Shown here: piece by piece, positions 8,166 through 64,000 of the stretch | Layout: each line of letters starts with the position of its first letter | How positions within the stretch are numbered: the first letter of the stretch is position 1 | Source: Escherichia phage vB_EcoM_ESCO8 | Length of the DNA stretch: 64,000 nucleotides | Sequence record: OM386653.1 | Strand: one strand, 5' to 3' | Notes under the pieces: model-generated | Database searches by the model: none | What the model was told of the DNA's origin: nothing | The model's input: only the letters and a program-made list of their open reading frames with translations | Position numbers and translations under genes: made by a program

Positions 8166-8664
8166 GTATGATCGTCCACCAACTGATTACTATCCTACTC
8201 CACAAAAATGTATAAATGCATTATTTAGTGTAATAGATTTTAATAACCTTAAAGAAGAAGGTTTTATTTTTGCAGAACCGTGTAAAGGCGCTGCTGCTGC
8301 AATTTATCAACATTTTCCAGAAGGATCAGAATATTGTGAGTTAGAAGAAGGGAAAGATTATTTTAACCACGAATGGCATACTAAGCCGGATATTATAATC
8401 ACAAATCCCCCATTCAAACTTGCACTTGAGTTCTTGCAAAAGAGCTTAAAAGAAGCAGACGTTTGCATATACTTGTTGCGTCTTGGGTTCCTAGAGTCTA
8501 TTAAACGAAGGGAATTCCATAAACAGAATCCACCAACAAACTTGATTGTTCTTTCTGAACGACCATCTTTTGTTGCAGGTGGTACTGATAAGACAGCATA
8601 TGCTTGGTACGTCTACGACCCAAAAAACAGGCTGGGTTTAACTCAACCTTTCTATTTTGTTTAA
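8155..8664 (+). CDS. small amino-methyltransferase-like protein (putative DNA N6-adenine or N4-cytosine MTase)
   Basis: 169 aa; YYPTP, FAEPCKGAAAA (AdoMet-binding-like) and IITNPPF (motif IV) in gamma-class order. Confidence 0.55.
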   Translation: MANKYDRPPTDYYPTPQKCINALFSVIDFNNLKEEGFIFAEPCKGAAAAIYQHFPEGSEYCELEEGKDYFNHEWHTKPDIIITNPPFKLALEFLQKSLKEADVCIYLLRLGFLESIKRREFHKQNPPTNLIVLSERPSFVAGGTDKTAYAWYVYDPKNRLGLTQPFYFV

Positions 8665-8677
8665 GAGGAGCATTTTT

Positions 8678-10638: not shown

Positions 10639-10965
10639 ATGAAAATAACGACAGAACAGGCTTTAATAGACAAAGGAAGGGAAATCTTAGAAAGTCATTT
10701 GGAGGATATTCAAAGGACTCCAGGGTATCTCGGCTGGCGTATACAAGAAGCCGTCGATTTTCTACCCCGTAAAAATAAAGAGATTGAAGTAAGATCTCTA
10801 TTCCTCCTTGTTAAAGTAGATGGTGACGCTATATACAAAGATGTAGCGTCTCACATTGAACAAATAGAAGAAAAAGCCTACAAAGAATTTGCAGATCTTG
10901 TTGTAGAACATAATATAGAAGGTAAAGTTAATATCTTTATACTTATGGATTTTGAGGAGAGTTGA
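10639..10965 (+). CDS. hypothetical protein (108 aa)
   Basis: ORF track; aaggagaagggg RBS. Confidence 0.45.
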   Translation: MKITTEQALIDKGREILESHLEDIQRTPGYLGWRIQEAVDFLPRKNKEIEVRSLFLLVKVDGDAIYKDVASHIEQIEEKAYKEFADLVVEHNIEGKVNIFILMDFEES

Positions 10966-11708
10966 TGCTAGTATATCAAGAAATTAGTGTAAAAGATGAT
11001 CAAGACCTGTTTATTATTGGTGATTTACATGGTTGCTTTGATTTGTACCAGAAAGGTGTTAATACTTTAGGTATCCGAGATCAAGATGTTGTTGTATCTT
11101 TAGGAGATCTTACAGATCGCGGCAAGCAGAATTTTCGTTGTGTTGTTGAATTCACCAGAAAGCTAAATCGTTATGGTATTCGTGGAAATCATGAAGATAT
11201 GATGATTAAAGGGTTGCTAGAAGGTGATAGACGATATTACGAATGTTGGTTTCAGAACGGAGGCCATACAGTTCTAGACGAGTGTGGAGAAGAGGGTGCA
11301 ACTGCTCTTGCTTTGATGCTAGAAGATTTACCTGTTGTACTTGTTGTCAATTATCGTAATATGAAACTAGGCTTTATTCACGGTGGGTATCCTTCAGTTT
11401 TGGAACATTTACCAGTGACAGAAGTTTTGCCATTTTGTTTGAATATGAATAAAGAGCAAGTTTCTCGATTCACAGAATCTTTAATGTGGGATCGTGATAT
11501 GATAGATTGCGCACTTGAAGGGATTCTTCTTCCTAGAGTTTCAGGAGTAGATTATGTATTTCACGGGCATTCTTATGTTCCTAAACCTGTGATTAGCAGT
11601 AATAGGGTATATATGGACACAGGATCTTGCTTCAATGGTAATTTAACCTTTGCATATTTTGATGATTCAAATACGTTACAATTTTATTCTACTTTAGAGG
11701 AGGACTAA
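10962..11708 (+). CDS. Ser/Thr protein phosphatase (calcineurin-like metallophosphoesterase)
   Basis: 248 aa; GDLHG, GDLTDRG, GNHE metal-binding motifs in canonical order. Confidence 0.8.
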   Translation: MMLVYQEISVKDDQDLFIIGDLHGCFDLYQKGVNTLGIRDQDVVVSLGDLTDRGKQNFRCVVEFTRKLNRYGIRGNHEDMMIKGLLEGDRRYYECWFQNGGHTVLDECGEEGATALALMLEDLPVVLVVNYRNMKLGFIHGGYPSVLEHLPVTEVLPFCLNMNKEQVSRFTESLMWDRDMIDCALEGILLPRVSGVDYVFHGHSYVPKPVISSNRVYMDTGSCFNGNLTFAYFDDSNTLQFYSTLEED

Positions 11709-12028
11709 TGTATAAAATCACAATTAAAGAAACAGTAGGAGAACTTACGAAAGAAACTACTATTGAGACGGAAGATGTTGAGTTAGTCAAAGAGCTTTTA
11801 TTTCCAAAACCAGAAATAAAAGATAATGATGAACAGTTGGATGAAGATAATGAGACAGCAAGGGATAAATGGAAGAAACAACTAGCGGAGATTTGGAAAA
11901 AGCCTGAAGTAACTCCTCCATTTGATCCTCGTAGACCTTATAATCCTTGGGAAATTGGAAGCCCTTGGTTTACGTACCCTATCACTCCAATTGTTAATCC
12001 AATTGTTACTCCCAATATTACTTGTTAA
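11708..12028 (+). CDS. hypothetical protein, Pro-rich C-terminus
   Basis: ORF track 106 aa. Confidence 0.4.
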   Translation: MYKITIKETVGELTKETTIETEDVELVKELLFPKPEIKDNDEQLDEDNETARDKWKKQLAEIWKKPEVTPPFDPRRPYNPWEIGSPWFTYPITPIVNPIVTPNITC

Positions 12029-12038
12029 GGAGAAAACC

Positions 12039-12617
12039 ATGAGCGATTTATTCTACACAGGTGTTGGTAGCAGAGATATTACAGACGAAGAATGGGATAC
12101 TATGGTATCTGTTGCAAAATGGCTATCTACATGGTTCATTTTGCGATCTGGTAAAGCAGAAGGTGCAGATTCCGCATTTGAATGCGGGGTATATGATAGT
12201 GGGAACAATACAAAGAAAGAAATATACATCCCTTGGCTCTCGTTTAAAGGTAATGAAATAGAGGGAGAGGTTATTGTTCTTGACAGACCAGATAGTGTAA
12301 ACTATGCTTTAACCTTGCAATATGCAAAAGAATTGCATCCAGCTTGGGACAGATTATCTCAAGGTGCTAAAAAATTACATCAAAGAAATATCCACCAAGT
12401 TCTTGGAAGAGATCTTGAGAATCCAAAACCATCTTGTTTTCTTTTAGCTTGTGCAAATACAGATAAAAATGGAGATCCTTTAGGTGGTACAAGAACAGCT
12501 TGGATGTTGGCTAAAAAGTTTAATGTTCCTTGTTTTAATATTCGAGGTAAAAGTAAAAAACAAATTTTCGAATTTATTAAGCCTATTTTAGAGGAGAATG
12601 GTCTTGTCCAGAAATAA
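12039..12617 (+). CDS. SLOG-like (DprA/LOG/YpsA-type) Rossmann-fold protein, tentative
   Basis: Track ORF starts at 11922; ATG at 12039 after aaggagaaaacc RBS preferred. YTGVGSRD then LRSGKAEGAD resembles the GxGxR / SGxAxGxD SLOG signature. Confidence 0.4.
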   Translation: MSDLFYTGVGSRDITDEEWDTMVSVAKWLSTWFILRSGKAEGADSAFECGVYDSGNNTKKEIYIPWLSFKGNEIEGEVIVLDRPDSVNYALTLQYAKELHPAWDRLSQGAKKLHQRNIHQVLGRDLENPKPSCFLLACANTDKNGDPLGGTRTAWMLAKKFNVPCFNIRGKSKKQIFEFIKPILEENGLVQK

Positions 12618-13122
12618 TATAAGCGTCATTAAAGATAGCTTTATTGATGTAACAAACGATATTGTACCTACAATACAATATATAGTTGAGGCACAAGGTT
12701 TAAACTTTATACGTGATAAAGTTAAGATTGTTTTTCATAACACTCCAGGTTTTGTAACAGTGGGTTCAACAAAAACGCCGTGCTCTACAGATCTGATTAC
12801 TTTAGACAAAAACTTAACACAAGAAGAAGTAGAAATTCTTAACCTCTATTGGTTAGGTTTTAAAAGATACGAGGATACAGCTTTATCCAGAATGTCAACT
12901 ATTTTAGCTAATATTCTGGTTCGGAAAATTTCTAAAATATGGGATGAAGAAAACCCAGATGAAATAGTTTTACACTTTGCTAAACCGGAAGACGGGGCAT
13001 ATGATATAGACACATCTGAAATGGCTTATGGATTTATTATTTCTGGTAATGTATTACAGATGGAATCTTTATTGTATGTTGAGACAGTAAAACACAATAA
13101 CAACTACGAGGAGGTTGTATGA
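12598..13122 (+). CDS. hypothetical protein (174 aa)
   Basis: ORF track. Confidence 0.5.
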   Translation: MVLSRNNISVIKDSFIDVTNDIVPTIQYIVEAQGLNFIRDKVKIVFHNTPGFVTVGSTKTPCSTDLITLDKNLTQEEVEILNLYWLGFKRYEDTALSRMSTILANILVRKISKIWDEENPDEIVLHFAKPEDGAYDIDTSEMAYGFIISGNVLQMESLLYVETVKHNNNYEEVV

Positions 13123-13376
13123 AAGGTTTAGAGTTTAACTTTGTAGATGCGTGGGAAGGATGGGATGAACTAGGAGTAGGGGATTTATGTTTTTATGATG
13201 TTACCTTGAAGGAAGAATACAAACATCTAGCTCCTAGTGAAGATTGCGATGTGATTCTATCTATTCTGTTAAGTCAGTCTATAGTGCAATTCGATTTCTT
13301 AAAAGGTAGTGAATGTATTGAAAGTAAAGCATTCCGTTTAGAAGTTTCTCTTGGTGAAGAAGTTCCTGTAGAATAA
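13119..13376 (+). CDS. hypothetical protein (85 aa)
   Basis: ORF track. Confidence 0.4.
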   Translation: MKGLEFNFVDAWEGWDELGVGDLCFYDVTLKEEYKHLAPSEDCDVILSILLSQSIVQFDFLKGSECIESKAFRLEVSLGEEVPVE

Positions 13377-13380
13377 TATA

Positions 13381-13402
13381 AACCCGCTTCGGCGGGTTTT
13401 TT
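13381..13402 (+). terminator. rho-independent terminator (cccgcTTCGgcggg + T6)
   Basis: Hairpin with tetraloop followed by tttttt. Confidence 0.6.
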
Positions 13403-13403
13403 G

Positions 13404-13432
13404 TTGACAACACTAGTTTTTTCGAATAAACT
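13404..13432 (+). promoter_or_regulatory. sigma70-like promoter (TTGACA-N17-TAAACT)
   Basis: Perfect -35 hexamer immediately after terminator, upstream of 13459 CDS. Confidence 0.45.
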
Positions 13433-13458
13433 ACAGAAAAACAGAAGAGGAGTTTAGC

Positions 13459-13869
13459 ATGTATTATAGTGATTATTTTGTAAACCCAACAAAAGAACAA
13501 CTTCAATCAGCAGTGGATAAGATGCAGATTGTAGTTAAAGAATGTGAGAAAATAAGAAAACAACTACAAGAGGAGACTGTTGTTGTTAATAAATGGTTTG
13601 GTCTTAAGAAGAAAGTTGTTAGTAAACACAATATCATCCTTGAAAAAGCAAAAACGACAGGAACTAGTTACGCCTTACAAGCCTTGTTACTAAATTACAT
13701 TGATATAGAACAACATTCTCTTCTGCACTGTTGGCTTAACAGCCCTGGTATTGAGGATCTCTTGTTCTGGTTATCGTGTGAATCTGTACTTTTAAATGAG
13801 AATGAGGCTTACCGTTTAAACTTCTGCCTCAAGGCAGAATTACCAGCTAGTGTTAAGGAGAAGAAGTAA
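13459..13869 (+). CDS. hypothetical protein (136 aa)
   Basis: ORF track; gaggag RBS. Confidence 0.5.
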   Translation: MYYSDYFVNPTKEQLQSAVDKMQIVVKECEKIRKQLQEETVVVNKWFGLKKKVVSKHNIILEKAKTTGTSYALQALLLNYIDIEQHSLLHCWLNSPGIEDLLFWLSCESVLLNENEAYRLNFCLKAELPASVKEKK

Positions 13870-13871
13870 TA

Positions 13872-14861
13872 ATGAAAGTTTTAAGTCTTTTTGATGGTAT
13901 GTCAGGAGGAATGCTTGCGCTAAAAAGTGCAGGTATTGAAGTAGATACATATTACGCTTCAGAATTAGACAAATTTGCCGTAGCTGAAAGCCAAGCAAAT
14001 TTTCCAGATATTATTCAGTTAGGTGATGTTACAAAATGGAGAGAATGGGATATCCCGTGGGGAGAAATTGATCTTTTGTTAGGTGGTAGTCCGTGTCAAG
14101 GCTTCTCTTCTTCTGGTAAGGGTTTGAACTTTCAAGATCCGCGATCTAAGCTATTCTTCGAATATGTTGAAATTCTTGAACATATTAAAAAGTTTAATCC
14201 TAATGTTAAGTTCATGCTTGAAAACGTTAAGATGAAAGCGGAGTGGGAAAACGTGATCACAAGTTACTTAGGTGTTGATCCCGTATTCATTAACTCCGCA
14301 GATTTCACGGCACAGAATAGACAACGTTTATACTGGTGCAACTGGGAAATAAAACCCTGGGAGATTACCAATGAAGTGTTGCAAGATATCATTGAAGATG
14401 ATAGTATTGTAGACAGAGATAAGGCTTATTGCATAGATGCAAATTATGCCAAAGGTGGTAATATAGAACAGTATTTTGAAAAGAGTCGCAGACAACTGGT
14501 TTTTTATCCGGCAGCAATATATGGGCGTAGAATTAATGAAAATGGCAAACGTAGTACATCTAAAACTGATCGTTTGGTACATTGTTTGGAAGTTCAGGAC
14601 AGTGGAAAAACTCGTTGCCTCACAACTGTGCCTAAAGACGTACTATTAGCTTATATTCCACCTGGAAGATATCTAGATGCCTTTGAAAAATTAAGTGAAG
14701 GCGTACATTATAGAAAGTTAACGGTTAAAGAGTGTTGCCGCTTGCAAGGTGTGCCAGATGACTACTTTAAAGTGAGTAGTAACACACAAGCATATAAGAT
14801 GTTAGGCAATGGTTGGACTATACCTGTCATTGCACATATTCTTAAATGTATGGAGGAATAA
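13872..14861 (+). CDS. DNA cytosine-5 methyltransferase
   Basis: 329 aa; motif I LFDGMSGG, motif IV GGSPCQGFS, motif VI ENV, motif VIII QNRQR, motif X GNGWTIPV. Confidence 0.85.
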   Translation: MKVLSLFDGMSGGMLALKSAGIEVDTYYASELDKFAVAESQANFPDIIQLGDVTKWREWDIPWGEIDLLLGGSPCQGFSSSGKGLNFQDPRSKLFFEYVEILEHIKKFNPNVKFMLENVKMKAEWENVITSYLGVDPVFINSADFTAQNRQRLYWCNWEIKPWEITNEVLQDIIEDDSIVDRDKAYCIDANYAKGGNIEQYFEKSRRQLVFYPAAIYGRRINENGKRSTSKTDRLVHCLEVQDSGKTRCLTTVPKDVLLAYIPPGRYLDAFEKLSEGVHYRKLTVKECCRLQGVPDDYFKVSSNTQAYKMLGNGWTIPVIAHILKCMEE

Positions 14862-14983
14862 TGGAAACATTGTGGAAAGGCTGGAAGACTGCTGTGATAG
14901 CTTTTATAATTCCATTAACTTTTCTTGGTTGGTGTTTTTGGGAATTTATCTTTTGGTTAATTTCCCATATACATTGGGGGTAA
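14861..14983 (+). CDS. small hydrophobic peptide (40 aa)
   Basis: Not in track; ggaggaataATG overlapping dcm stop, stop abuts next ATG; one predicted TM helix. Confidence 0.35.
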   Translation: METLWKGWKTAVIAFIIPLTFLGWCFWEFIFWLISHIHWG

Positions 14984-14984
14984 T

Positions 14985-15593
14985 ATGACTCAAAAAGTTG
15001 CATATCAAGTAGATCGTGAAGATGGTGAAGGTAGTGTTGTAGTTTTTGATACACATGGTCTTGCAGCAAGACGCAAAGGTGCTTGTCTACTGGACATTGG
15101 TGGTGAAGATGAATACTGCACTGTACGTAGAGTAAAAGAATTTGATCAATATGCTGAAAAAGGTTTTGTACCCGTGAAAGCACTATTAGAAGCTGGATGG
15201 TGGATACCTAGTGCACATGATTATGATATTTTGGAAGATACAGATGAATTCAACAGTGAAGATTTTGTTTTTTCTCTGGATGAAAAATGTGTTTGGAAAA
15301 ACTGGGATGAAATGGAACGCCATGCTTATTTTATAAACGAAGCATTAGATCGTAAAACTTGGTTTGAAAATACAGTTAAAGCAGCGTATCCTCAATTTAC
15401 TTTTACACAGTTTTGGGGTGGCCCACATCATATTACTCATACAGCATATTTCGAGTTCCCAGGTTCACGTTATAAAGGTACTGTTTATTGGGATTGGGAC
15501 GAGAACAAAGAACCTTCTGCTCAAGATTTCCGTTGCTATGTTTGTCAAGGTGATCAAGAAGCCCTTGACAAGTACCTTAAAAGTCTGGTATAA
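14985..15593 (+). CDS. hypothetical protein (202 aa)
   Basis: ORF track. Confidence 0.5.
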   Translation: MTQKVAYQVDREDGEGSVVVFDTHGLAARRKGACLLDIGGEDEYCTVRRVKEFDQYAEKGFVPVKALLEAGWWIPSAHDYDILEDTDEFNSEDFVFSLDEKCVWKNWDEMERHAYFINEALDRKTWFENTVKAAYPQFTFTQFWGGPHHITHTAYFEFPGSRYKGTVYWDWDENKEPSAQDFRCYVCQGDQEALDKYLKSLV

Positions 15594-15608
15594 TCCGTAA
15601 AACTTAAC

Positions 15609-15632
15609 CAAAGCCCCAATCAGGGGCTTTAT
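15609..15632 (+). terminator. rho-independent terminator (gccccAATCAggggc + ttt)
   Basis: Hairpin after CDS stop. Confidence 0.5.
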
Positions 15633-15647
15633 TTGTGTGGAGGATAT

Positions 15648-16178
15648 ATGGGTTTTGATGATATGTTATTATATGAGGAGGCTTGTGTGAAAGAAGCTAT
15701 GGCTTTACCAGTTTTATCTATTGATATTACAACAGTAGACACTTTTTCAGATTGTGAAACGTGTGGATCGTATTCGTCTATTGTACATGAAGTTAGTGGG
15801 GATTTAGGCACTTACGAAGATGGAGATTATGCAAGTTGTTTAGGTGATAATCGAGATGGTGAAGTGGCGAATGTTGCAAACTGGATTGCTTCTAAGTTAA
15901 AAGAAAGAAATCGTCCGTTCCCTAATCTTCTTACACCAGAAGCTATGCTTAAAGCTGAACAAGAGATGTATGATTATGGTTATAAAGTAGATTATGACTA
16001 TAATGATCCTAAATATAAAAAATTGAGTGACAAGTATTGGGAACTAGCTAATGCTTATGATAAATACTACTCTACAGAAAACATTGTTAAATTGTTTTTA
16101 GATTTTGGAGTAGAAATTAATTGGGATTTCGAAGAGGAAGAGCGTTACGACGCATCTTCTTGGGATGATGATTACTAA
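15648..16178 (+). CDS. hypothetical acidic protein
   Basis: Track ORF from 15633; ATG at 15648 after ggaggatat RBS preferred. Confidence 0.5.
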   Translation: MGFDDMLLYEEACVKEAMALPVLSIDITTVDTFSDCETCGSYSSIVHEVSGDLGTYEDGDYASCLGDNRDGEVANVANWIASKLKERNRPFPNLLTPEAMLKAEQEMYDYGYKVDYDYNDPKYKKLSDKYWELANAYDKYYSTENIVKLFLDFGVEINWDFEEEERYDASSWDDDY

Positions 16179-16189
16179 GAGGATATTGA

Positions 16190-17002
16190 ATGCGAAGAGT
16201 AATTTTTGTTAGTGGCGCAGGTTTAAGTGCAGACAGTGGGATTCGAACGTTCCGAACAGACACAGATAGTGGTCGTGCCTTATGGGAAGAATATGACTTA
16301 GAAGAGGTCTGCGATATTGGAGCTTTCCAAGCAGGTTATCGTGTGAGAACATCTCCAGATCTTCCAGTGGTCGGTGGTGTAGACGAGAACGGTATGGACT
16401 TGTATGCCAAAACACACGAATTTTATAACAAAAGACGTGTTGAGCTTAAAGATGTACAACCTAATGCTGCACATATTCAAATAGCAAAGTGGTTTAAGGA
16501 ATATCCTAACCAAGTAGTAAACTTGACAACAAACGTCGATGATCTACTAGAGCGAGCAGGTGTGGACAGGGATTCTGTTATTCACGTGCACGGGTATCTC
16601 CCTGAAGTAGTTTACCGTATGCATCCTGGAGATTACAAAACACTGGTAGACATTGGTTACAATAGTATAAACATAGATGATTATAACTGGGTGAAGCCTA
16701 ATGTTGTATTTTTTGGTGAGGCTGCACCTTTGTATGCAGATATGGCTCACTTGTTTGATACTTTGACCATGCAAGATTTGGTTGTTGTAGTAGGATGTTC
16801 AAACCAAGTTATCAATTTTAATTGGGAATTATTCCCTGCACTTAATATGGGTACAAAAATGATTGTTGTTAACCCAGGAATTAATTACGAAGAAACTCTT
16901 CTTTACGAAGATAGAGGAGTCTTTGTTTACAGAGAAAAGGCAGCAGATGCTTTTAGCAATCCTGCTTTCATAAAAATGATAGAAGATCATTTGACTAAGT
17001 AA
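16190..17002 (+). CDS. Sir2-family (sirtuin-like) protein lacking the zinc-ribbon cysteines
   Basis: 270 aa; FVSGAGLSADSGIRTFR, TTNVDDLLERAG, HVHGY (catalytic His), VFFGEA and VVVGCS blocks in canonical order; no CxxC...CxxC module. Confidence 0.75.
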   Translation: MRRVIFVSGAGLSADSGIRTFRTDTDSGRALWEEYDLEEVCDIGAFQAGYRVRTSPDLPVVGGVDENGMDLYAKTHEFYNKRRVELKDVQPNAAHIQIAKWFKEYPNQVVNLTTNVDDLLERAGVDRDSVIHVHGYLPEVVYRMHPGDYKTLVDIGYNSINIDDYNWVKPNVVFFGEAAPLYADMAHLFDTLTMQDLVVVVGCSNQVINFNWELFPALNMGTKMIVVNPGINYEETLLYEDRGVFVYREKAADAFSNPAFIKMIEDHLTK

Positions 17003-17009
17003 CTTGACC

Positions 17010-17030
17010 AAGGGGCGAAAGCCCCTTTTC
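17010..17030 (+). terminator. rho-independent terminator (ggggcgaaagcccc + tttt)
   Basis: Identical hairpin to 5728-5741. Confidence 0.6.
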
Positions 17031-17045
17031 TTATAGGAGAATATT

Positions 17046-17303
17046 ATGACCACAGAACAAATCGTTAAAGACCATTTTATGATGCACTACGTTTATTACT
17101 TCAATAATAATCAACAGAAAGGTGAGGGATTTTGTTATCTATCCGCACAACAAGGTTTTGGTATCCGTCAAGCAGATATTAACGGGGCAGTGGCTGGAAT
17201 TACAAAAGGCTTGGTTGCAAACCTTAAAGATAATGTTGTTGTTGTCCCAACGTGCATCTCTTATCTCTCAACCTGCCCTGAAGAAGATTTTATGCATTCT
17301 TAA
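17046..17303 (+). CDS. hypothetical protein (85 aa)
   Basis: ORF track; aggag RBS. Confidence 0.4.
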   Translation: MTTEQIVKDHFMMHYVYYFNNNQQKGEGFCYLSAQQGFGIRQADINGAVAGITKGLVANLKDNVVVVPTCISYLSTCPEEDFMHS

Positions 17304-17370
17304 AACCTCCTGTAACGCATTCTAACGCACTTTTTATTTTAGTAATACGTTTCCCTATCTAATGCAAACA

Positions 17371-17405
17371 AAAGCCCCTAGAAGCGATTCTAGGGGCTTT
17401 ATTTT
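17371..17405. terminator. bidirectional terminator at convergence of plus and minus blocks
   Basis: aaaagccccTAGAAGCGATTCTAggggctttatttt: long hairpin flanked by A-run and T-run. Confidence 0.5.
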
Positions 17406-17478
17406 AGTCTTCTGTAAAATATCCTATGACAACAATGATAAAGATGATTAACACTACGATACTCTCTAATAAAGTCAT

Positions 17479-17700
17479 CTACAGATCTCGTTCATATAGT
17501 TCAATTATCAATTCATCCTCTGCTGTTATCGTACCAATTTGCCAAGTGTGAAGATAAACCTCTGTATAAGAGTGTATCTTACTATCTAACAAGCACAACC
17601 ACGTATTGTTGCTTACCTTTTCTTGAATATGAACCTTAACCACGAAAGGGTGAGGGTTATCTACTAAGAAACCAATACTACCTTCTACAACTACAGACAT
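17479..17700 (-). CDS. hypothetical protein (73 aa)
   Basis: ORF track. Confidence 0.45.
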   Translation of the reverse strand: MSVVVEGSIGFLVDNPHPFVVKVHIQEKVSNNTWLCLLDSKIHSYTEVYLHTWQIGTITAEDELIIELYERDL

Positions 17701-17747
17701 AATACCTCCTATTGTTTATGCTAAGACAAATAAAAACACACATACAA

Positions 17748-17772
17748 GAAAACCCGCCGGAGCGGGTTTAGC
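17748..17772 (-). terminator. rho-independent terminator (acccgcCGGAgcgggt)
   Basis: Hairpin followed by T-run on minus strand; same hairpin recurs at 44451. Confidence 0.5.
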
Positions 17773-17774
17773 TG

Positions 17775-18098
17775 TTATACAATGTGTTTTGTTTTAACGT
17801 GCGAAGATTTAAAAATCTTATTATGTAATGAAATACAACTATCACGGAACACATAGTAGTTAACAACATCTGGTTTATCAACACAGAGTGTAGCCACAAC
17901 TTTCATAGGTATAGATACATTCTCACGAAGAGTAATACTACCTTTCAAACGTTCAGATGAAATGTGAATCAAACCTTCTTTTTCATCAATGATAACTTCT
18001 TTAACATTTTTGAAATTATAACAAGAGTTGTCAACATAAGATACCCTTGCTTTTGTTTGCTTCTGTTTAGGACGAGAACCAGTGTTTATTTTTTGCAT
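17775..18098 (-). CDS. hypothetical protein (107 aa)
   Basis: ORF track. Confidence 0.45.
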   Translation of the reverse strand: MQKINTGSRPKQKQTKARVSYVDNSCYNFKNVKEVIIDEKEGLIHISSERLKGSITLRENVSIPMKVVATLCVDKPDVVNYYVFRDSCISLHNKIFKSSHVKTKHIV

Positions 18099-18106
18099 AG
18101 TTTTCC

Positions 18107-18394
18107 TTATTTGCTTTCACGAGCAAAATAATAATTTTCATATTCATTACGTGTAACGATTTCTGGATGATCAGGTTCACCGTAACTAAGTTTAATTTCA
18201 GGATACACTTTGGTGTTGAATAGACACGTAACACCTCTCATATAATATCCTGTAGGACTTAAGACAACATCATCTTCACTTACACTTGAGAATTTTATTT
18301 CACCATTAGTATCTTTGACGACAATAAGAGCATGTTCAGGCCAATCAAGATTCTCTTCTTTCAGTTTTTCATAAACTTCTTGCACTAGTTCCAT
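18107..18394 (-). CDS. hypothetical protein (95 aa)
   Basis: ORF track. Confidence 0.45.
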   Translation of the reverse strand: MELVQEVYEKLKEENLDWPEHALIVVKDTNGEIKFSSVSEDDVVLSPTGYYMRGVTCLFNTKVYPEIKLSYGEPDHPEIVTRNEYENYYFARESK

Positions 18395-18403
18395 ATTGCC
18401 TCC

Positions 18404-18577
18404 TCAGATTACAAATTTTTCTTCTTCTGGTTTCTCGTAGTTGGGAGAATAAACGTGGGATGGATTAAAACCTTTAAAGCTACCCCGCCCTTTTCGTGGA
18501 CAATTGAATGTTTTAGCTTTGTGATCACCAAAAGATTTACCACAATGTACACATTTATAATTGGTATCTTTGAACAT
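18404..18577 (-). CDS. small zinc-finger protein (57 aa, CVHCGK...FNCPRKGRG)
   Basis: Not in track; aaggagag RBS upstream; preferred over overlapping low-complexity track ORF 18409..18606. Confidence 0.45.
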   Translation of the reverse strand: MFKDTNYKCVHCGKSFGDHKAKTFNCPRKGRGSFKGFNPSHVYSPNYEKPEEEKFVI

Positions 18578-18733
18578 TTTACTCTCCTTTGAAAGATAGG
18601 CTGCACAGCAGTACAGCCTTTTAAAAAATTAGTGTTTAAATTTTTCGATTACTTCGTCAACTTTAGCGATGATAACATCCTGGTACTTGTGACCAAAATA
18701 ACCAACAACAACACCAACAATAAACGTCATCAT

Positions 18734-19333
18734 TTACTTCTCCTTTTTAACTATAATGGCTTCTTCATTCAGAGTAAACAGCAAGGAAGATGTATCACCA
18801 ACACACCTTGCACCTGGAATGAGTTCTAAAATTTTAGAGGATATAGCAATAGTATCTTCATCCAGTACATATTCTCCAGGTAACAATCTTAATGTTATTG
18901 GAAAATCTACGGATGCCAAACCAGAGAACATCCCATCATTAAGAAGAACAACTTCTAAACCGTTGCCTTCTTGTTGTGCATTATGCACTTTTTCCGGTAA
19001 GAAGTCAATACATTGATTTAAAATTTCCACATTTAATTCTACACCAGTCCGAGCTTTATAAACTCTAGCCAAATCTATGATCCGAGGATCAATACTGGCG
19101 TAAGGAGATTCTAGGTGTTTTGGGTCAATAGGAGCAACGCGCAATTTACCATCGAGAGATATCCACGTTACAATCCACATTTCACCAACCCCAGGTTGAT
19201 CTCGCGCAGTAAGGAATTCTACTAATGCTCCAGGATTAGGCATTATGTAATCTTGTGTGATCAACATGTTCTTCACTCGCAAAAGCATTCCTGGCTTCAG
19301 TAAGCCCTTCTCACCACTCCAATATTCTTTCAT
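18734..19333 (-). CDS. hypothetical protein (about 199 aa)
   Basis: Track ORF 18734..19378; internal ATG (MKEYW) at 19333 has aggagtaaaa RBS. Confidence 0.5.
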   Translation of the reverse strand: MKEYWSGEKGLLKPGMLLRVKNMLITQDYIMPNPGALVEFLTARDQPGVGEMWIVTWISLDGKLRVAPIDPKHLESPYASIDPRIIDLARVYKARTGVELNVEILNQCIDFLPEKVHNAQQEGNGLEVVLLNDGMFSGLASVDFPITLRLLPGEYVLDEDTIAISSKILELIPGARCVGDTSSLLFTLNEEAIIVKKEK

Positions 19334-42688: not shown

Positions 42689-43240
42689 TCAGGAAATATC
42701 AGATTGTGCTTTTAGATAAACAGCAAGGTCTGTATGCCATTTTCCTAAAAGATTTTGTCCTTTCCAACAGTCCTTATTTTCCACATCACGATCCCACATT
42801 CCCATTTTGATACCATAAATAGAATCATAAGGGCTTGCCTCTACGAACTCCTTATCTGCGTAAGCGATAAGTTTATTTTTGAGATCTTCATTTTGTGTGT
42901 ATTTAAGATACAAACCACGCTTGACAATCTTCTCCCGTAAAGAAGTCCAAGTAGCTTCATCGTAATCTTTAACTAATCTACCTAGTCGCTTATAATATGC
43001 CTGTTCTTTTTCTCCTGTATATCTTAGATCTCCGGTTAAAATAGAAGATGCAATGTTGTAATCATAAAACAAACATGCTTTTCTCCACATCATATATTGT
43101 TCCACACAAGTAAATTCAACAGAACTTGTAATAGAATTATTATACTTGGGAGCTAAAGGTTCAATAAAAGATGATAGATACCAGTTGCTAAATTCATCTT
43201 TTGCCGAGAAGAAGAACACATACTTATCAGTAATCCGCAT
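42689..43240 (-). CDS. NADAR-domain (YbiA-like) protein
   Basis: 183 aa; FFFSAKDEFSNWY, CVEQYMMWRKA, GQNLLGKWHTDLAVYL fit the NADAR pattern (F.F....SN..., ..EQ..QA.KA, G.NLLG). Confidence 0.65.
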   Translation of the reverse strand: MRITDKYVFFFSAKDEFSNWYLSSFIEPLAPKYNNSITSSVEFTCVEQYMMWRKACLFYDYNIASSILTGDLRYTGEKEQAYYKRLGRLVKDYDEATWTSLREKIVKRGLYLKYTQNEDLKNKLIAYADKEFVEASPYDSIYGIKMGMWDRDVENKDCWKGQNLLGKWHTDLAVYLKAQSDIS

Positions 43241-44487: not shown

Positions 44488-45615
44488 TTAAAACACGCTT
44501 GCCAAAGTTGCACCATTGGTGATAGTTGGTTCCAGAACAATACGGAAAGAATCTTCTGGATCATCACTAAACACAACGATTTTACCGCCTGTAATAAGAT
44601 CTGCTTTCATTTTTGTCGCATTCAATGGAATTCGAGCATCTCCTTCATCATCAAAAACCACGTAAGAGCTATTAGCAAGGGCTTCTTTAGAGTCTGCATC
44701 ACTTGGAGATGACAAGTACACGTCTAGTGTGCACGAGCCACCTAAAAAGATTGCAGGTGTGAAGTTATGCCAACTAGATACCCAGCTAACTTTCTGAAGT
44801 TTCCCATTAATAACAACGCTGCTGATATCCCACTTATTACCACCACCCAAAGAAACGCCCATCATAGAGATGCATTCTTTAAAGGATAAATCAGGGTAGA
44901 AATTAAGTTCTTCTACTATACCTTGGATCACATCAAAGGACAACTCTAAACTTACATCCCAAAGCCTTTGGAAATTATCAAAGTGTGCTTTGTTATCCAG
45001 GTTTTTATCTAAATAGTCAATCATAGTTTCTAGTGAGATTTTATCATAATTAAAATTATAAAACACACGACTAGGACGATTTAGAAAGAATTCAGAGATA
45101 AAGCCACTGTTTTTAGTTAGAATAAACAGTTTATTACCACTGCCAGTACCATCTAACAAAGTGAGAAGTGCTTCTTGATCTTGTTTCTTCTCATACACTT
45201 TATCAAACTCGTCAAAAATAATCACTGCTTTGTCGGTGATCTTGCTAATAAGTTCAATGAAATTAGCATCGCTGTAGGCTTGAGTAACCATAATAGTTGG
45301 AATACCTTCTTCTACAAGGTCACGACTAATGAGTTTGGCTAACATAGTTTTACCACTACCCTTAGTTCCTGTCAGAAGCAATCCTGTATTTTTACCTTGT
45401 GCACTCCGGCGATGGAATGTACGGATAACGTGATTTGCTCGTTTTTCTGTTTCACCATACAGAACATCCGGTACACCTGTCAGATTACCACGGCTTAAAA
45501 AATAATTGCCAAGGGGATCACGACTAACAGTATAGAATCCAGGTGGAAGATAGTTAGATTCCACGCCCATATCTTTATTTACACTTACAATATCACCATA
45601 AATCGTGTATTTCAT
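44488..45615 (-). CDS. AAA-type P-loop ATPase, paralog 1
   Basis: 375 aa; Walker A GTKGSGKT, Walker B IIFDEFD, NRPSR arginine motif; about 45% identical by eye over the ATPase core to 60181..61341. Confidence 0.6.
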   Translation of the reverse strand: MKYTIYGDIVSVNKDMGVESNYLPPGFYTVSRDPLGNYFLSRGNLTGVPDVLYGETEKRANHVIRTFHRRSAQGKNTGLLLTGTKGSGKTMLAKLISRDLVEEGIPTIMVTQAYSDANFIELISKITDKAVIIFDEFDKVYEKKQDQEALLTLLDGTGSGNKLFILTKNSGFISEFFLNRPSRVFYNFNYDKISLETMIDYLDKNLDNKAHFDNFQRLWDVSLELSFDVIQGIVEELNFYPDLSFKECISMMGVSLGGGNKWDISSVVINGKLQKVSWVSSWHNFTPAIFLGGSCTLDVYLSSPSDADSKEALANSSYVVFDDEGDARIPLNATKMKADLITGGKIVVFSDDPEDSFRIVLEPTITNGATLASVF

Positions 45616-60180: not shown

Positions 60181-61341
60181 ATGTTTACAGTATTCGGCAA
60201 TCAAATCTTCCTGCGTCAGAAGTCTGGTACAGATATTGAAGAAATTCCAGCAGGAACTTTTGGTGTAGGTGTTACTCAAAGTGGCGAGTTCTTCCTGTAT
60301 CCTAAAAACGATATGGAAGTCCCTTCAGTAACATACGGTGATACTGATGATAAATCAGAACGTATTATCAAGACGTTCCTTAGCCGCAAAGGTAAAAACA
60401 CAGGTGTTCTCCTTGAGGGTACGAAGGGTAGCGGTAAAACTTTGCAAGCTAAAATGCTGTCTTCTGCTCTTCGTGAAATGGGTATTCCTACTATTTCTAT
60501 CGGTAGTGCTTTTAATGGTGAAGGCTTTATCAATTTTATGTCTAAAATCACACAACCTGTGATGATTATGATCGATGAATTTGATAAACTGTATGCTGAA
60601 AAAGATGCACAGGATGGTTTGCTTACCCTGCTGGATGGTGTTGGTGGCTATGACAAGCTGTTTGTATTGACTAAAAATGATGGTTATGTATCAGAATTTT
60701 TGCGTAATCGCCCTAGCCGTATTTTCTACAGCTTTAACTATAAGAAACTACCTAAAGCTACTATGGATGATTATCTGGCTAAAAATCTGGAGAACAAAGC
60801 CTTTTTACCAGATTTTGAAACGCTTTATAATCTGTCCGTGGACTTGAACTTTGATATTGTTCAGTCATTAGTAGAAGAACTTAACCGTTACCCTAATGAC
60901 AAATTCTCTGATGCACTTGCATTAATGGGTATCAGTATTACTGAACACCGCTATGCTGCAAAAGAAGTTAAACTTCTGAAAGTTAACGGTGTAGATCGTA
61001 CAGGAGATGTTTCGGCAGATACCGATATTGACGGTATGACAGCACAGGGTTTGTTTAGCGGTAATCGTTATGTTGTAGCTGTAGACCATAAGCTAGGAGA
61101 AGAGCATCTTCCTGAAATGGAAGGAGTCGTTACCGTAGAAGATAAAGACGAAGAAGGTGACTACTACTGGGGTGTAGACCGTATCTTGCTGACGTATGAT
61201 GAAAAACACATCCGTACAATGGGCGGTGACGGTTATCACTTTATGTTCACCGATGATAAAGGTAACAACATTGAAGTTGTTATTAAAAACAAAGAACGTA
61301 AAAACTACACAGAGTATGTGTTTGGTGGTCGTTCTTACTAA
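60181..61341 (+). CDS. AAA-type P-loop ATPase, paralog 2
   Basis: 386 aa; Walker A GTKGSGKT, Walker B IMIDEFD, NRPSR; paralog of 44488..45615. Confidence 0.6.
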   Translation: MFTVFGNQIFLRQKSGTDIEEIPAGTFGVGVTQSGEFFLYPKNDMEVPSVTYGDTDDKSERIIKTFLSRKGKNTGVLLEGTKGSGKTLQAKMLSSALREMGIPTISIGSAFNGEGFINFMSKITQPVMIMIDEFDKLYAEKDAQDGLLTLLDGVGGYDKLFVLTKNDGYVSEFLRNRPSRIFYSFNYKKLPKATMDDYLAKNLENKAFLPDFETLYNLSVDLNFDIVQSLVEELNRYPNDKFSDALALMGISITEHRYAAKEVKLLKVNGVDRTGDVSADTDIDGMTAQGLFSGNRYVVAVDHKLGEEHLPEMEGVVTVEDKDEEGDYYWGVDRILLTYDEKHIRTMGGDGYHFMFTDDKGNNIEVVIKNKERKNYTEYVFGGRSY

Positions 61342-61347
61342 GTGATA

Positions 61348-61372
61348 AAAGGAGGCGAAAGCCTCCTTTATT
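61348..61372 (+). terminator. rho-independent terminator (ggaggcGAAAgcctcc + ttta ttt)
   Basis: Hairpin after ATPase stop. Confidence 0.5.
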
Positions 61373-61375
61373 TGT

Positions 61376-61579
61376 ATGGAGGGTATTATGGATCATTATT
61401 TTGTTTTTAAAGATAAAGTTGATACCGCAGGTGGTCACGTTGCTAAAAATGATCGTGACATTAAAGAAGTATTAGGAGATCTGATTAACATTTTAGAACA
61501 AAAAGAGTTGCTTTTAGATAAGGATATTGCTAGACTTCTTGGTGTGGGGATAAGTGACATACAAAGATTACCATTCTAA
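61376..61579 (+). CDS. hypothetical protein (63-67 aa)
   Basis: ORF track; second in-frame ATG at 61388 has a better RBS. Confidence 0.4.
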   Translation: MEGIMDHYFVFKDKVDTAGGHVAKNDRDIKEVLGDLINILEQKELLLDKDIARLLGVGISDIQRLPF

Positions 61580-61590
61580 AGGGGAAGAAA

Positions 61591-61746
61591 ATGCTTACAG
61601 ATGATGAATATAAAGCTATCCAAGAAAAACTAACGGAACTTGAAATTCTTGCTGTCAATATTAAAGATCAATCACATGCTGGAAAGTTACTACATCAAGA
61701 GATCAATAAAATTAAGCAGATGATATTCTTTTGGACGGAGGATTAA
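61591..61746 (+). CDS. small protein (51 aa)
   Basis: Not in track; ggggaagaaaATG RBS; stop abuts HAD-like gene. Confidence 0.35.
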   Translation: MLTDDEYKAIQEKLTELEILAVNIKDQSHAGKLLHQEINKIKQMIFFWTED

Positions 61747-61748
61747 AA

Positions 61749-62405
61749 ATGACTGTTAAGCATATTTCTTTTGATGTATGGAATACTCTTATTACTGCTA
61801 ATCCTTTGTATGCAGAAGAACGCAACAAGGTTATTGCCGAGTATGCCTCTTGTTCTGAGGTAGAAGCAGCTACCGTATATAAAGAGGTAAAAACTCTCCT
61901 GGATTTAAAAGCAGAAAAAGGCATTTGTGGAACATCTAGAAATGCTTGGGAAACACTTTCTGCTCGTTTGAACATTGATCTTGATAAAGTAGATGGGTTA
62001 AAAAGAGACTGTTTAGCAATGTTTATAAAACATCCTCCAACATTAAACCCTGAACTTTGCAAGAAGTTGGAAGAGCTAAGTTCAACCTATTCTTTGAGTA
62101 TTAAAAGCAATACTAATTTTGTACCTGGTAGTTTTTTAGCTGTATATTCTGGCTTGACAAAATTACCATTCGACTTTATGCATTTTTCTGACGAGTTTTG
62201 CTTGTGTAAACCAGATCCTAGGTTTTTTAAACTCTCTTTTGATGAAATGGTAACGTTTGATCTCGCACCAGAGGAGATCTTACACGTTGGAGATAGTTTG
62301 ATCTATGATGGAAAAGCTGTTGACATAGGGATGAAGTTCTGTCATATTATTAATCCAGAAGACTTGTTGGCTAAACTTAAAAAAGAGGAACTTATTAATG
62401 CGTAA
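61749..62405 (+). CDS. HAD-superfamily-like hydrolase, tentative
   Basis: Track ORF from 61731; ATG at 61749 after ggaggattaaaa. N-terminal ISFDVWNTL (haloacid-dehalogenase-like DxxGTL variant) and C-terminal HVGDSLIYDGKAVDIGM (motif IV-like). Confidence 0.45.
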   Translation: MTVKHISFDVWNTLITANPLYAEERNKVIAEYASCSEVEAATVYKEVKTLLDLKAEKGICGTSRNAWETLSARLNIDLDKVDGLKRDCLAMFIKHPPTLNPELCKKLEELSSTYSLSIKSNTNFVPGSFLAVYSGLTKLPFDFMHFSDEFCLCKPDPRFFKLSFDEMVTFDLAPEEILHVGDSLIYDGKAVDIGMKFCHIINPEDLLAKLKKEELINA

Positions 62406-63255
62406 TCAAATTCAACATTTTGCTAATACTTTTACTAACCTGAAGGAAGCAAAATTTAACATTGCAGATTATTCCAAGCTAAAGTTTGGTAGTAACCAGG
62501 CAGCAAAAAGAATGGGGCGCATTCTGGCTGAAAGTTTCTTTTCCAAGTATGAAGAACGACTGGTAAATGAAAGTTTTGTTGTTATTCCATCTCCATATAA
62601 CTATGTGAAAAATGCAGCTACAGTGTTATCTGAACATTTTGTAGATCACCTCAACTACCTAATCTCTATCAAAGGAGGTAAAGCAGTGGAGTGGGATATC
62701 GTTCATCGTAAAGTGAGCTATATCAATGATTATGGATTTCTTAGCAAAGAAGATCGTAAGGCTTTGATCGATGGTGACACTTTCTCTATCAATCGTGATT
62801 TCTGGGGTAATAAAACTCTGATTTTCATTGATGATGTTAATATTACAGGAACGCACGAAGAAAAACTTATTGAAATTTTAGACAAAGAAGGTGTTGAAAA
62901 CGATACGTTTTTCCTGTACTTTGCAAAGTATGAAGGTACAGAAGCCAATACCGAAGCTGCACTTAACTTCAACTATATCAATAACCTGGCAGCTTTTATT
63001 AAAATGATTAAACAAGAAACTGATGCTAAATGTTTGGTTCGTCCTATTAAGTATCTAATGAGTCAAAGCGAAGTTGATTTTAAAATTGCACTTTCACAGC
63101 TTCCTTTGTATTATGTAGAACAACTGTTCTTTGGTTGCCTTGCAGAAGGCTACAATAACATTGAAAAATATAAAGAGAACTTTGATTTCCTACGTCAATT
63201 TTTTGAAAGCAACATTATCAACAAATCTAATGTTAAAGGGGATTATTATGTCTAA
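62398..63255 (+). CDS. phosphoribosyltransferase (type I PRT) fold protein
   Basis: 285 aa; TLIFIDDVNITGTH matches the PRPP-binding loop (hhhhDDhhxTGxT). Confidence 0.5.
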   Translation: MRNQIQHFANTFTNLKEAKFNIADYSKLKFGSNQAAKRMGRILAESFFSKYEERLVNESFVVIPSPYNYVKNAATVLSEHFVDHLNYLISIKGGKAVEWDIVHRKVSYINDYGFLSKEDRKALIDGDTFSINRDFWGNKTLIFIDDVNITGTHEEKLIEILDKEGVENDTFFLYFAKYEGTEANTEAALNFNYINNLAAFIKMIKQETDAKCLVRPIKYLMSQSEVDFKIALSQLPLYYVEQLFFGCLAEGYNNIEKYKENFDFLRQFFESNIINKSNVKGDYYV

Positions 63256-63964
63256 TAAAGTAATGACTTTCGGAGATCCTATCACCAATATTACAGAAAA
63301 AGATTTTGGGCGTGTAGCAACAGATAAAGATGGTGTCTTAAGAATTCGTGTACAAGGTATTACAGCACAGGATGAATATGCTGTGTATGTTTCAGGTCTT
63401 AACTATATTGATGATCGCATTACACAAAACTTTGCACTGATCGGTGGTGTAGAGAAAATGTATTGGGAAGATGAAATTGTAACAAGTTATCCGGCAGGTA
63501 TCATTGAGGTATACGGTGATCTTTTAGCAGCAGCCGAGAGAGGCGATATAGACGCTATAGCACACTGCTGTAACTGTTTTTGCACTATGGGTAGTGGTAT
63601 TGCACCAAAAATTAAAAGCAAGTGGCCTGGTGCGTTTAAAGCAGATTGTGCCACTAAACATGGTGATTATAAAAAATTAGGTACGTTTACCAAATATATA
63701 GAAAACAATTTGACAATTTATAATTTATATGGACAATATGGTTATAGTCGTCGTGAGGAAGGTAAGCGTGACCTGAATTATGAAGCTATCTACAATGCGT
63801 TAGATAGTATGGGAGACGATGTTGTATCTTCAGGCGGTAAAATTGTAGGTTTACCAATGCTTGGTTGTGGTTTGGCTGGAGGTTCTTGGAGTATTGTAAA
63901 ACTTATGATCGAAGAAACTCTAGTAAACAAAGGTTTAAATGTAATTGTTTACAAACTGAAATAA
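63248..63964 (+). CDS. macro-domain protein with N-terminal extension
   Basis: Track ORF from 63131; ATG at 63248 (MSNKV). GDIDAIAHCCNCFCTMGSGIA resembles macro D-A-I-V-N-A-A-N...GGGV; C-terminal VGLPMLGCGLAGGS resembles the macro diphosphate-binding loop. Confidence 0.5.
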   Translation: MSNKVMTFGDPITNITEKDFGRVATDKDGVLRIRVQGITAQDEYAVYVSGLNYIDDRITQNFALIGGVEKMYWEDEIVTSYPAGIIEVYGDLLAAAERGDIDAIAHCCNCFCTMGSGIAPKIKSKWPGAFKADCATKHGDYKKLGTFTKYIENNLTIYNLYGQYGYSRREEGKRDLNYEAIYNALDSMGDDVVSSGGKIVGLPMLGCGLAGGSWSIVKLMIEETLVNKGLNVIVYKLK

Positions 63965-63973
63965 GGAGAAAGT

Positions 63974-64000
63974 ATGGCAGGTGTTTTAGCAGTATTAGGT
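63974..64000 (+). CDS. start of next CDS (truncated by window end)
   Basis: aaggagaaagtATG then MAGVLAVLG; only 9 codons visible. Confidence 0.25.

Follow-up and report, generated by a model that had tools for sequence, protein, structure and literature searches.

Three overlapping genes near one end of a 64,000-nucleotide stretch of Escherichia phage vB_EcoM_ESCO8 (OM386653.1; the whole stretch that was analysed is called the window below) raise the question of whether genes packed so tightly also act together. They occupy positions 61,749 to 63,964 and encode a HAD-like protein, a phosphoribosyltransferase (PRT) of the PRTase_3 family and a protein with a macrodomain (the macro protein). 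The original prediction was that this trio is a candidate counter-defence module that recycles or detoxifies breakdown products of nicotinamide adenine dinucleotide (NAD+) by a route not previously described. Our analysis points instead to two units, a HAD-PRTase_3 pair linked to Ter genes and a counter-defence macro protein of the Adpp/AdfM family, whose proximity would reflect nothing more than synteny within one phage subfamily; we consider this reading rather probable. Both units belong to kinds that have been described, the Ter-associated PRTase and HAD computationally in 2012 and 2021, and Adpp and AdfM experimentally in 2025-2026.

The gene arrangement is as first proposed: all three open reading frames (ORFs) are present and co-oriented, each product has a Pfam match, and successive ORFs overlap by 8 nucleotides (ATGCGTAA, 62398-62405, between the HAD and PRTase_3 genes; ATGTCTAA, 63248-63255, between the PRTase_3 and macro genes). 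A Shine-Dalgarno-like motif lies 7-9 nucleotides before each of the three ORFs. The window is 100% identical to the reverse strand of the record of Escherichia phage outra (MN850645, Justusliebigvirus, phi92-like), and genes beyond the window were read from that record; coordinates of the outra extract (L002) are converted to window positions by adding 52699.

The HAD-PRTase_3 pair and its Ter neighbours

To place the trio in context, we compared 45 loci with relatives of the PRTase, which fall into 18 lineages at 60% identity and comprise metagenomic phage contigs, named phages (Phapecoctavirus, Klebsiella Justusliebigvirus, Xanthomonas XaC1, and Rhizobium, Caulobacter and Brevundimonas phages), Rhizobiaceae plasmids, a Hymenobacter plasmid and two Bacteroidota metagenome-assembled genomes (MAGs). 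A HAD homologue stands directly upstream of PRTase_3 at every one of these loci; the two genes are an obligate pair. The macro gene adjoins the pair only in Stephanstirmvirinae, and 17 of the 18 lineages carry the pair with no adjacent macro gene. Across phage genomes the macro family occurs in 2,890 records, about 18 times the 156 that contain PRTase_3. Because the pair mostly stands without an adjacent macro gene and the macro family is far more widespread, the three genes probably do not constitute the single HAD/PRT/macro module that had been proposed; the co-occurrence comparison, which had been suggested as a check, shows the pair tracking Ter genes instead.

This linkage is directly observed. 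When all neighbours within 6 kilobases (kb) of the pair were clustered all-against-all, the only families that recurred were TerC (8 lineages), TerD (7), TelA (4) and vWA-TerF (4), and 11 of the 18 lineages have one or more Ter genes within 10 kb of the pair. In outra, a full phage-borne ter cluster follows the trio (outra extract 11822-19046, record ~71.3-78.6 kb), reaching ~8 kb past the window end, with Pfam matches to TerC (1e-38), TelA (8e-34), a vWA-TerF-like protein (7e-39) and TerD (5e-28), and with conserved proteins of 196, 283, 187 and 200 amino acids (aa) that are of unknown function. The 196-aa family is also found near the pair in three lineages. At the level of whole genomes, TerD is present in 143 of 50,697 phage records, and the taxa are nearly those of the 156 PRTase_3 records; CcrColossus and XaC1 have both TerD and PRTase_3, with the genes far apart. 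In Hymenobacter the pair lies divergently adjacent to a classic operon containing three TerD genes, two vWA genes and genes for PP2C, a kinase and DUF475. A plasmid search for PRTase_3 matched Rhizobium, Sinorhizobium and one Hymenobacter and revealed no link to the classical enterobacterial ter islands. A scan of bacterial contigs with exact peptide patterns matched Rhizobiaceae, two Bacteroidota MAGs and one phage-like MAG; it reached close relatives only and carries little weight for the wider bacterial family.

The PRT matches Pfam PF15610 (PRTase_3, ‘ComF-like’) over the full model length (143.5 bits, with the cut-off at 28.7; E 1e-41), and its PHROGs family is phrog_13415, of unknown function. 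Its loop for binding phosphoribosyl pyrophosphate (PRPP), LIFIDDVNITGTH at aa 141-153, is intact, as had been noted from the outset: D145, D146, T150, G151 and H153 are invariant among 47 PRTase homologues, which have the loop DDVxITGTH. The predicted structure (pLDDT, the predicted local distance difference test score, 91.7) has a type I PRT core followed by a C-terminal helical domain, aa ~185-280, with invariant residues of its own (R215, K218, E250 and Y252). This extra domain distinguishes PRTase_3 from ComF and from the type I purine and pyrimidine PRTs, as does its lack of any sequence-level match to a salvage family. We found no experimental paper on PF15610 in a full-text literature search, and nothing specific in the literature on phi92 or phAPEC8 with tellurite or PRT.

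The GenBank label of the PRT, ‘putative orotate phosphoribosyltransferase’, suggests an alternative in which the pair works in nucleotide salvage, or provides an unusual nucleotide with which phage nucleic acid is made or modified, and the Ter neighbourhood is incidental. The position of the pair downstream of nrdD/nrdG and other nucleotide-metabolism genes is consistent with this, as is its occurrence with no Ter genes nearby in Rhizobiaceae plasmids and several phages. However, an NCBIfam search returned no salvage model, the best being ComF at E 0.032; a search of PDB sequences with the family profile yielded HPRT alone, at an unconvincing E of 0.1; and no solved PRT is more than 19% identical. 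Because it has neither a match to a curated salvage family nor a close solved structure, PRTase_3 is neither an ordinary salvage enzyme nor an orotate PRT, despite its label. A step that dephosphorylates the product would also be counterproductive in salvage, and the Ter association extends across phages and Bacteroidota and is seen at the whole-genome level as well. We therefore regard the salvage alternative as unlikely.

The HAD protein only narrowly passes the Pfam cut-off (PF00702, 27.1 bits against 26.4), and belongs to phrog_14393 (2.5e-119). Its original description as HAD-type and hydrolase-like holds for this match and for the nucleophile Asp, but the canonical second Asp of motif I is gone. 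The second Asp (Asp+2) is the general acid/base of HAD phosphatases. The pattern is a property of the family: motif I reads D-x-W/Y-x-T in 39 of 40 distinct sequences (Trp, once Tyr), and the remaining one comes from a truncated ORF without this region. The nucleophile Asp, S-N in motif II, K-P in motif III and the acidic, Mg-binding G-D-x4-D of motif IV are conserved, but the catalytic residues of a phosphatase (DxDxT, S/T, K, acidic motif IV) are not all present. The combination of D-x-W-x-T with a Mg-binding motif IV is unlike standard phosphatases and also unlike dehalogenases.

A Ter-associated PRTase and HAD that form a biosynthetic module for a ‘nucleoside-like metabolite’ were reportedly recognized by Anantharaman, Iyer and Aravind in 2012. 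In the account of Iyer et al. (2021, PMC7824862), ‘PRTases and HAD fold phosphoesterases’ are the components of Ter systems that synthesize the signal; these authors also record such systems in jumbo phages, in Acinetobacter phage ME3 and in ‘related smaller tailed phages’, and propose that phage Ter systems act against superinfecting phages. The published speculation on their role is that they keep out competing phages or help the infected cell to tolerate stress. The pair described here resembles that module in its PRTase_3 match, its adjacent HAD gene and its linkage to TerC, TerD, TelA and vWA-TerF, and resembles the ME3-type systems in that the Ter cluster is carried by a phage. It differs in being a two-gene core alone, with no ATP-grasp protein, TIM-barrel lyase partner or TerB detected in the 20 kb examined; in the missing Asp+2 of its HAD; and in the macro gene that follows it, which is not a Ter feature. 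We read the pair as the conserved two-gene ‘biosynthetic’ unit of Ter-type systems, here heading a phage-borne ter cluster. In the mechanism we propose, PRTase_3 would join PRPP to a base or another nucleophile, the HAD protein may then process the phosphoribosyl product, and the resulting nucleoside-like small molecule would, as the literature predicts, act with membrane-associated Ter proteins.

The macro protein and its relatives

The second unit is the macro protein. It matches Pfam PF01661 over residues 106-217 (29 bits against a cut-off of 22, E 1e-6) and is placed by PHROGs in phrog_335, labelled ‘phosphatase’. Residues 85-238 are modelled confidently, with 10-residue block means of pLDDT between 84 and 98, and a Foldseek search with this model matched TARG1 (E 8e-13, template modelling (TM) score 0.90), DarG (E 5e-10, TM 0.80) and also BT1257. 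The best matches among PDB sequences are SCO6735 (5e3b, 7e-16) and 2fg1 (2.5e-15). DarG is also the best NCBIfam and PADLOC model, at a score below the family cut-off (48 bits against 250), and was the single match when the trio and the Ter proteins were scanned with PADLOC, a library that holds no Ter models. The fold of the macro protein is of the TARG1/DarG (ALC1-like) class.

Two residues that are invariant in 40 homologues, Asn109 and Gln163, align with functionally important positions of characterized relatives. SCO6735 removes from thymidine the ADP-ribose installed by DarT, for which it needs Gln85 (Q85A is inactive) and Asn27 (PMC9411070); in PhiKZ AdfM (gp104), mutation of Asn23 lowers activity (Cell Rep 2026, PMC13309987). 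The macro protein shares this Gln and Asn, and the lack of the TARG1 Lys/Asp dyad, with the SCO6735/BT1257 subgroup (ALC1-like), whereas DarG and PhiKZ gp104 have a Lys where it has the Gln. It differs from SCO6735 in having a Cys at the equivalent of Val25 and in being a phage protein, SCO6735 being a bacterial housekeeping or protective enzyme.

By sequence, the macro protein is 40% identical over the whole domain to gp182 of Vibrio phage Gary, named Adpp (E 3e-35), and 26% identical to PhiKZ gp104, with the catalytic Asn aligned. Tk.4, represented by its orthologue from the T4-like phage PP01 and not by the T4 sequence, has 34% identity to the macro protein (E 8e-22); Tk.4 and Adpp are themselves 39% identical. 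The macro protein stands a little nearer to Adpp than to Tk.4, and in a small tree it falls in a clade with Adpp and with the NARP1-associated macro proteins of Pakpunavirus and Vibrio phages, Tk.4 standing one branch deeper. Close relatives lie in or beside NARP1 operons in Pakpunavirus (47% identity in the tree alignment) and in Vibrio phage 166E36-1 (44%). The latter phage (L054) has two different macro genes, at 1416-1856 and 3498-3968, flanking or inside its NARP1 operon, and an HNH gene there separates Adps from the inner macro gene, a parallel to the HNH insertion in Klebsiella phage FKP3 described below.

Both functions known in this family are directed against defence systems. In phage Gary, Adpp is encoded between Adps and Namat and hydrolyses ADP-ribose (ADPR)-1''-phosphate to ADPR, and the extended NARP1 pathway (NARP1-AP) requires it to overcome aRES, a defence of the RES type (Osterman et al., bioRxiv 10.64898/2026.01.28.702374). 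Knockout of T4 tk.4, which encodes AdfM, makes the phage sensitive to DarTG2 (bioRxiv 10.1101/2025.11.20.689424). The macro protein is like Adpp in its family, in having all conserved motifs in common and in residing in a phage that encodes Adps and Namat; it is like the AdfM proteins (T4 Tk.4 and PhiKZ gp104) in being a standalone phage macrodomain of the TARG1/DarG-like class. A reading in which it acts against DarT2 only was considered and revised, since phage Gary carries the characterized Adpp within the same family.

The homology and the conservation of Asn109 and Gln163 are observed here, and by analogy with these relatives the macro protein is very likely a hydrolase of ADP-ribose derivatives used in counter-defence. 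We infer that it would cleave substituents from C1'' of ADP-ribose, which could serve the phage by two routes. In the first, it would convert the ADPR-1''-phosphate produced by RES-type NAD+ phosphorylase defences to ADPR, from which the phage's unlinked NARP1 pair (Adps and Namat) could rebuild NAD+. In the second, instead or in addition, it would remove DarT2-installed ADP-ribose from thymidines in phage DNA.

The same chemistry could serve RNA repair, with the macro protein as an accessory that, like Poa1p, clears the ADP-ribose-1''-phosphate or 1'',2''-cyclic phosphate left by removal of tRNA 2'-phosphates. Poa1p is a structural match (TM about 0.75), macro relatives have RNA ligase genes nearby in Mydovirus and in phage Gary, and the phage encodes an RNA ligase, a polynucleotide kinase and a Sir2 protein; an RNA-repair (KptA-like) role has been proposed for sirtuins in related phages (Iyer et al. 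2022). However, the macro gene in this phage is not beside RNA-repair genes, and both family members that have been tested experimentally give defence-specific phenotypes, against aRES and DarTG2. This makes an RNA-repair role improbable in our judgement, and counter-defence remains the function we favour.

The N-terminal extension that had been noted in the macro protein is real, although it spans ~84 aa rather than 100. Pfam has no match for the extension, and its model does not reach a pLDDT of 50. At least 80% of the macro protein is covered in only 69 of the 2,890 family records, and the extension is limited to Justusliebigvirus of E. coli and to a single related lineage known from metagenomes. 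Phapecoctavirus and the Klebsiella-type Justusliebigvirus have a plain macro protein of 157-161 aa after the pair. In two relatives (L012 and L013) a separate gene between the PRTase and macro genes encodes a 188-aa ORF, whose N-terminus is 29% identical to the extension over 73 aa (pairwise E 2e-5). Because of this resemblance to a separate ORF at the same position, the extension is probably a fused remnant of a neighbouring gene.

The conserved position of the macro gene raises the possibility that in Stephanstirmvirinae it was recruited to the Ter pair as a lineage-specific extension of Ter signalling, hydrolysing, binding or resetting a ribosyl or ADP-ribose-like product. The HAD-PRTase-macro order is kept in Justusliebigvirus (E. 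coli and Klebsiella types) and Phapecoctavirus and survives in phage FKP3, in which an HNH endonuclease gene lies between the PRTase and macro genes. The three genes are in the same putative transcription unit, and two other lineages (L014 and XaC1) have macro genes 6-8 kb from the pair. However, synteny within one subfamily is expected for any two genes and is not evidence of coupling; the distant macro proteins of L014 and XaC1 come from other branches (26-33% identity); bacterial Ter loci with the pair have no macro gene; and the macro protein here keeps the exact motifs of Adpp and Tk.4, which are enzymes with known substrates. Recruitment of this kind seems to us unlikely. Less likely still is the stronger form of the idea for the phi92-like phages, in which the trio is a genuine three-step unit whose PRTase_3 and atypical HAD make a previously undescribed ribosyl or ADP-ribose-like molecule that the macro protein then hydrolyses or resets.

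NAD+ and ADP-ribose functions elsewhere in the phage

If the trio does not rebuild NAD+, other genes of the phage can. A canonical NARP1 pair, outra_30 and outra_31, lies outside the window, ~60 kb from the macro gene (outra record 16172-18870; L051 5173-7871). The first product is Prs-like and 43% identical to Gary Adps (E 6e-48), and the second is 38% identical to Gary Namat over its full length (E 2e-111); the same pair is present in Bas62. Judged from these two genes, the phage does rebuild NAD+ by the canonical NARP1 route. In the record, one carries the label hypothetical and its partner the label ‘nicotinate phosphoribosyltransferase’. The outra NARP1 operon contains no macro gene, and the macro protein differs from Adpp in this separation and in its N-terminal extension; its activity on ADPR-1''-phosphate is a prediction.

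The trio itself was said from the start to look unlike the canonical two-enzyme sets for NAD+ reconstitution, and this was borne out. Adps is PRPP-synthetase-like and Namat is Nampt-like, whereas PRTase_3 is type I and ComF-like and the HAD protein is unrelated to either; Pfam searches of the trio and 20 kb of flanking DNA found neither a PRPP-synthetase-like ADPR pyrophosphokinase nor a Nampt-like transferase. The further step taken in the original prediction, that the three proteins form an undescribed pathway for recycling ADP-ribose or NAD+ breakdown products, is not borne out. In such a pathway the PRT might, for example, use an ADPR-derived pyrophosphate or phosphate donor and the macro protein bind or trim ADPR. 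The genes are indeed tightly packed and overlapping, the macro protein is homologous to the Adpp of NARP1-AP, a single small gene separates the pair in Rhizobium phages from an annotated NMN (nicotinamide mononucleotide) adenylyltransferase/Nudix gene, and the phage is invested in NAD+ and ADPR biology through NARP1, Sir2 and NADAR. However, no NAD-related gene recurs near the pair, which in nearly all lineages has no macro neighbour; the macro family is many times more widespread than the pair; the pyrophosphokinase that would activate ADPR is absent from the locus and its flanks; PRTase_3 is not Nampt-like; and the phage already has canonical Adps and Namat. We consider such a three-enzyme route highly improbable. 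What stands of the proposed role in ADP-ribose and NAD+ counter-defence applies to the macro protein alone, through the known pathways of its Adpp and Tk.4 relatives, and not to the HAD-PRTase_3 pair.

The Sir2 and NADAR genes that had been cited in support both exist in the window, but neither is linked to the trio, being ~45 and 18.5 kb away, with the NADAR gene on the opposite strand. The neighbours of the Sir2-family gene include small genes with a tRNA-synthetase-like annotation. The NADAR gene is, by analogy with T4 AdfN, a candidate anti-DarTG1 factor; T4 likewise has AdfN alongside AdfM, and NADAR together with the macro protein would parallel that pairing. The phage may thereby carry both kinds of DNA de-ADP-ribosylase.

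Several observations weigh against our reading of two units of known kinds. The macro gene is kept downstream of the pair across three Stephanstirmvirinae genera despite the HNH insertion, and it apparently shares a transcription unit with the pair. On the side of the pair, no Ter gene was seen within 10 kb in 7 of the 18 lineages, and ComF, the closest structural neighbour of PRTase_3, is not a proven transferase. Calling the HAD protein a phosphatase is an assumption that is not secure, because Asp+2 is replaced, here by Trp; this weakens the proposed processing step. On the side of the macro protein, the small tree places it about equally distant from the two tested references, Adpp and Tk.4, and its ~60-kb distance from NARP1 contrasts with the characterized Adpp inside the operon (the criterion of its authors being within two genes).

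Surroundings of the trio and implications

Upstream (5') of the trio lie nrdD/nrdG and other nucleotide-metabolism genes, an AAA+ ATPase gene and two small ORFs that had no match in a Pfam search. Where E. coli Justusliebigviruses have the small ORFs, relatives of the Klebsiella type and of Phapecoctavirus have a conserved 201-aa gene (L028 8745-9350 and L029 8742-9347), which is missing from the window and likewise had no Pfam match; one record labels it ‘MazG-like’. That the small ORFs are remnants of this gene was rejected, as there is no similarity between them. A terminator-like hairpin 3' of the AAA+ gene is a possible 5' boundary of the transcription unit that contains the trio, which would extend to a hairpin and promoter-like site before TerC. 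Because the consensus scan for promoters and terminators gave counts not above shuffled expectation, these boundaries are tentative. The positions of these features are collected in the table.

Table. Positions of the trio, its functional elements and associated genes (window coordinates, or outra extract coordinates where so marked)
Feature	Position	Strand	Remarks
Sir2-family gene	16190-16999	+
NADAR gene	42692-43240	-	Pfam 3e-36 on the 99.5%-identical Bas62 orthologue
Terminator-like hairpin	61348-61369	+	consensus scan; outra extract 8649-8670
Two small ORFs	61376-61746	+	67 and 51 aa; packed directly 5' of the HAD gene
HAD-like protein gene	61749-62405	+	218 aa
HAD motif I, D9-V-W-N-T13	61773-61787	+	nucleophile Asp retained, Asp+2 replaced by Trp
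PRTase_3 gene	62398-63255	+	285 aa; type I phosphoribosyltransferase fold and C-terminal helical domain
PRPP-binding loop LIFIDDVNITGTH	62818-62856	+	aa 141-153; intact
Macro protein gene	63248-63964	+	238 aa; outra record 79126-79842
Macro N-terminal extension	63248-63499	+	aa 1-84; no family match, low-confidence model
Macrodomain, TARG1/DarG/SCO6735-like class	63500-63964	+	aa 85-238 and stop; Adpp/Tk.4 (AdfM) family, phrog_335
Asn109	63572-63574	+	aligns with SCO6735 Asn27 and PhiKZ AdfM Asn23
Gln163	63734-63736	+	aligns with SCO6735 Gln85; position of the TARG1/DarG catalytic Lys
Small ORF outra_103	63974-64000	+	68 aa, cut by the window end; then a second small ORF, TerC, TelA, vWA-TerF-like, TerD
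TerC	outra extract 11822-12799		beyond window end; Pfam
TelA	outra extract 14578-15681		beyond window end; Pfam
vWA-TerF-like	outra extract 16928-17722		beyond window end; Pfam
TerD	outra extract 17795-18391		beyond window end; Pfam

Some other features of these genomes deserve mention. The 386-aa AAA+ protein (60181-61341) has a paralogue in the window, 42% identical, whose gene at 44491-45615 is annotated ‘FtsH-like protease’, and a UvrD-type helicase upstream contains an intein in Bas62 and none in outra (L001 85-2859 and L002 1121-2857, respectively). The second gene of the genome labelled ‘putative phosphatase’ (10965-11705) encodes no further macro protein but a metallophosphoesterase of the calcineurin-like type (PF00149, 1.7e-13). 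According to the Bas62 annotation, a set of dTDP-rhamnose biosynthesis genes (rmlA/B/C/D-like; window ~2535-3401 and neighbours) is also present, an unusual cargo for a lytic phage. Several ‘Campylobacter phage’ records (host C. jejuni; for example MG065645 and MG065639) are 97-100% identical to these E. coli phages and are probably mislabelled or contaminant assemblies.

These results have implications for annotation and for phage biology. ‘Orotate phosphoribosyltransferase’ and ‘phosphatase’ are poor GenBank labels for genes of the trio, and a tempting but misleading lead disappears once the trio is no longer read as a new NAD+ pathway. Were the three genes nevertheless a three-step unit, a Ter system would be tied to ADP-ribose chemistry during infection. 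If Adpp works from a distant locus, surveys based on operons undercount NARP1-AP. In outra, Bas62 of the BASEL collection and their relatives, a well-behaved group of E. coli K-12 phages, a whole Ter cluster resides on an engineerable lytic phage, which is relevant to the small molecule that the pair is predicted to make. The same phage group bears on whether one macro family comprises both an ADPR-1''-phosphate phosphatase that counters aRES and a DNA de-ADP-ribosylase that counters DarTG2.

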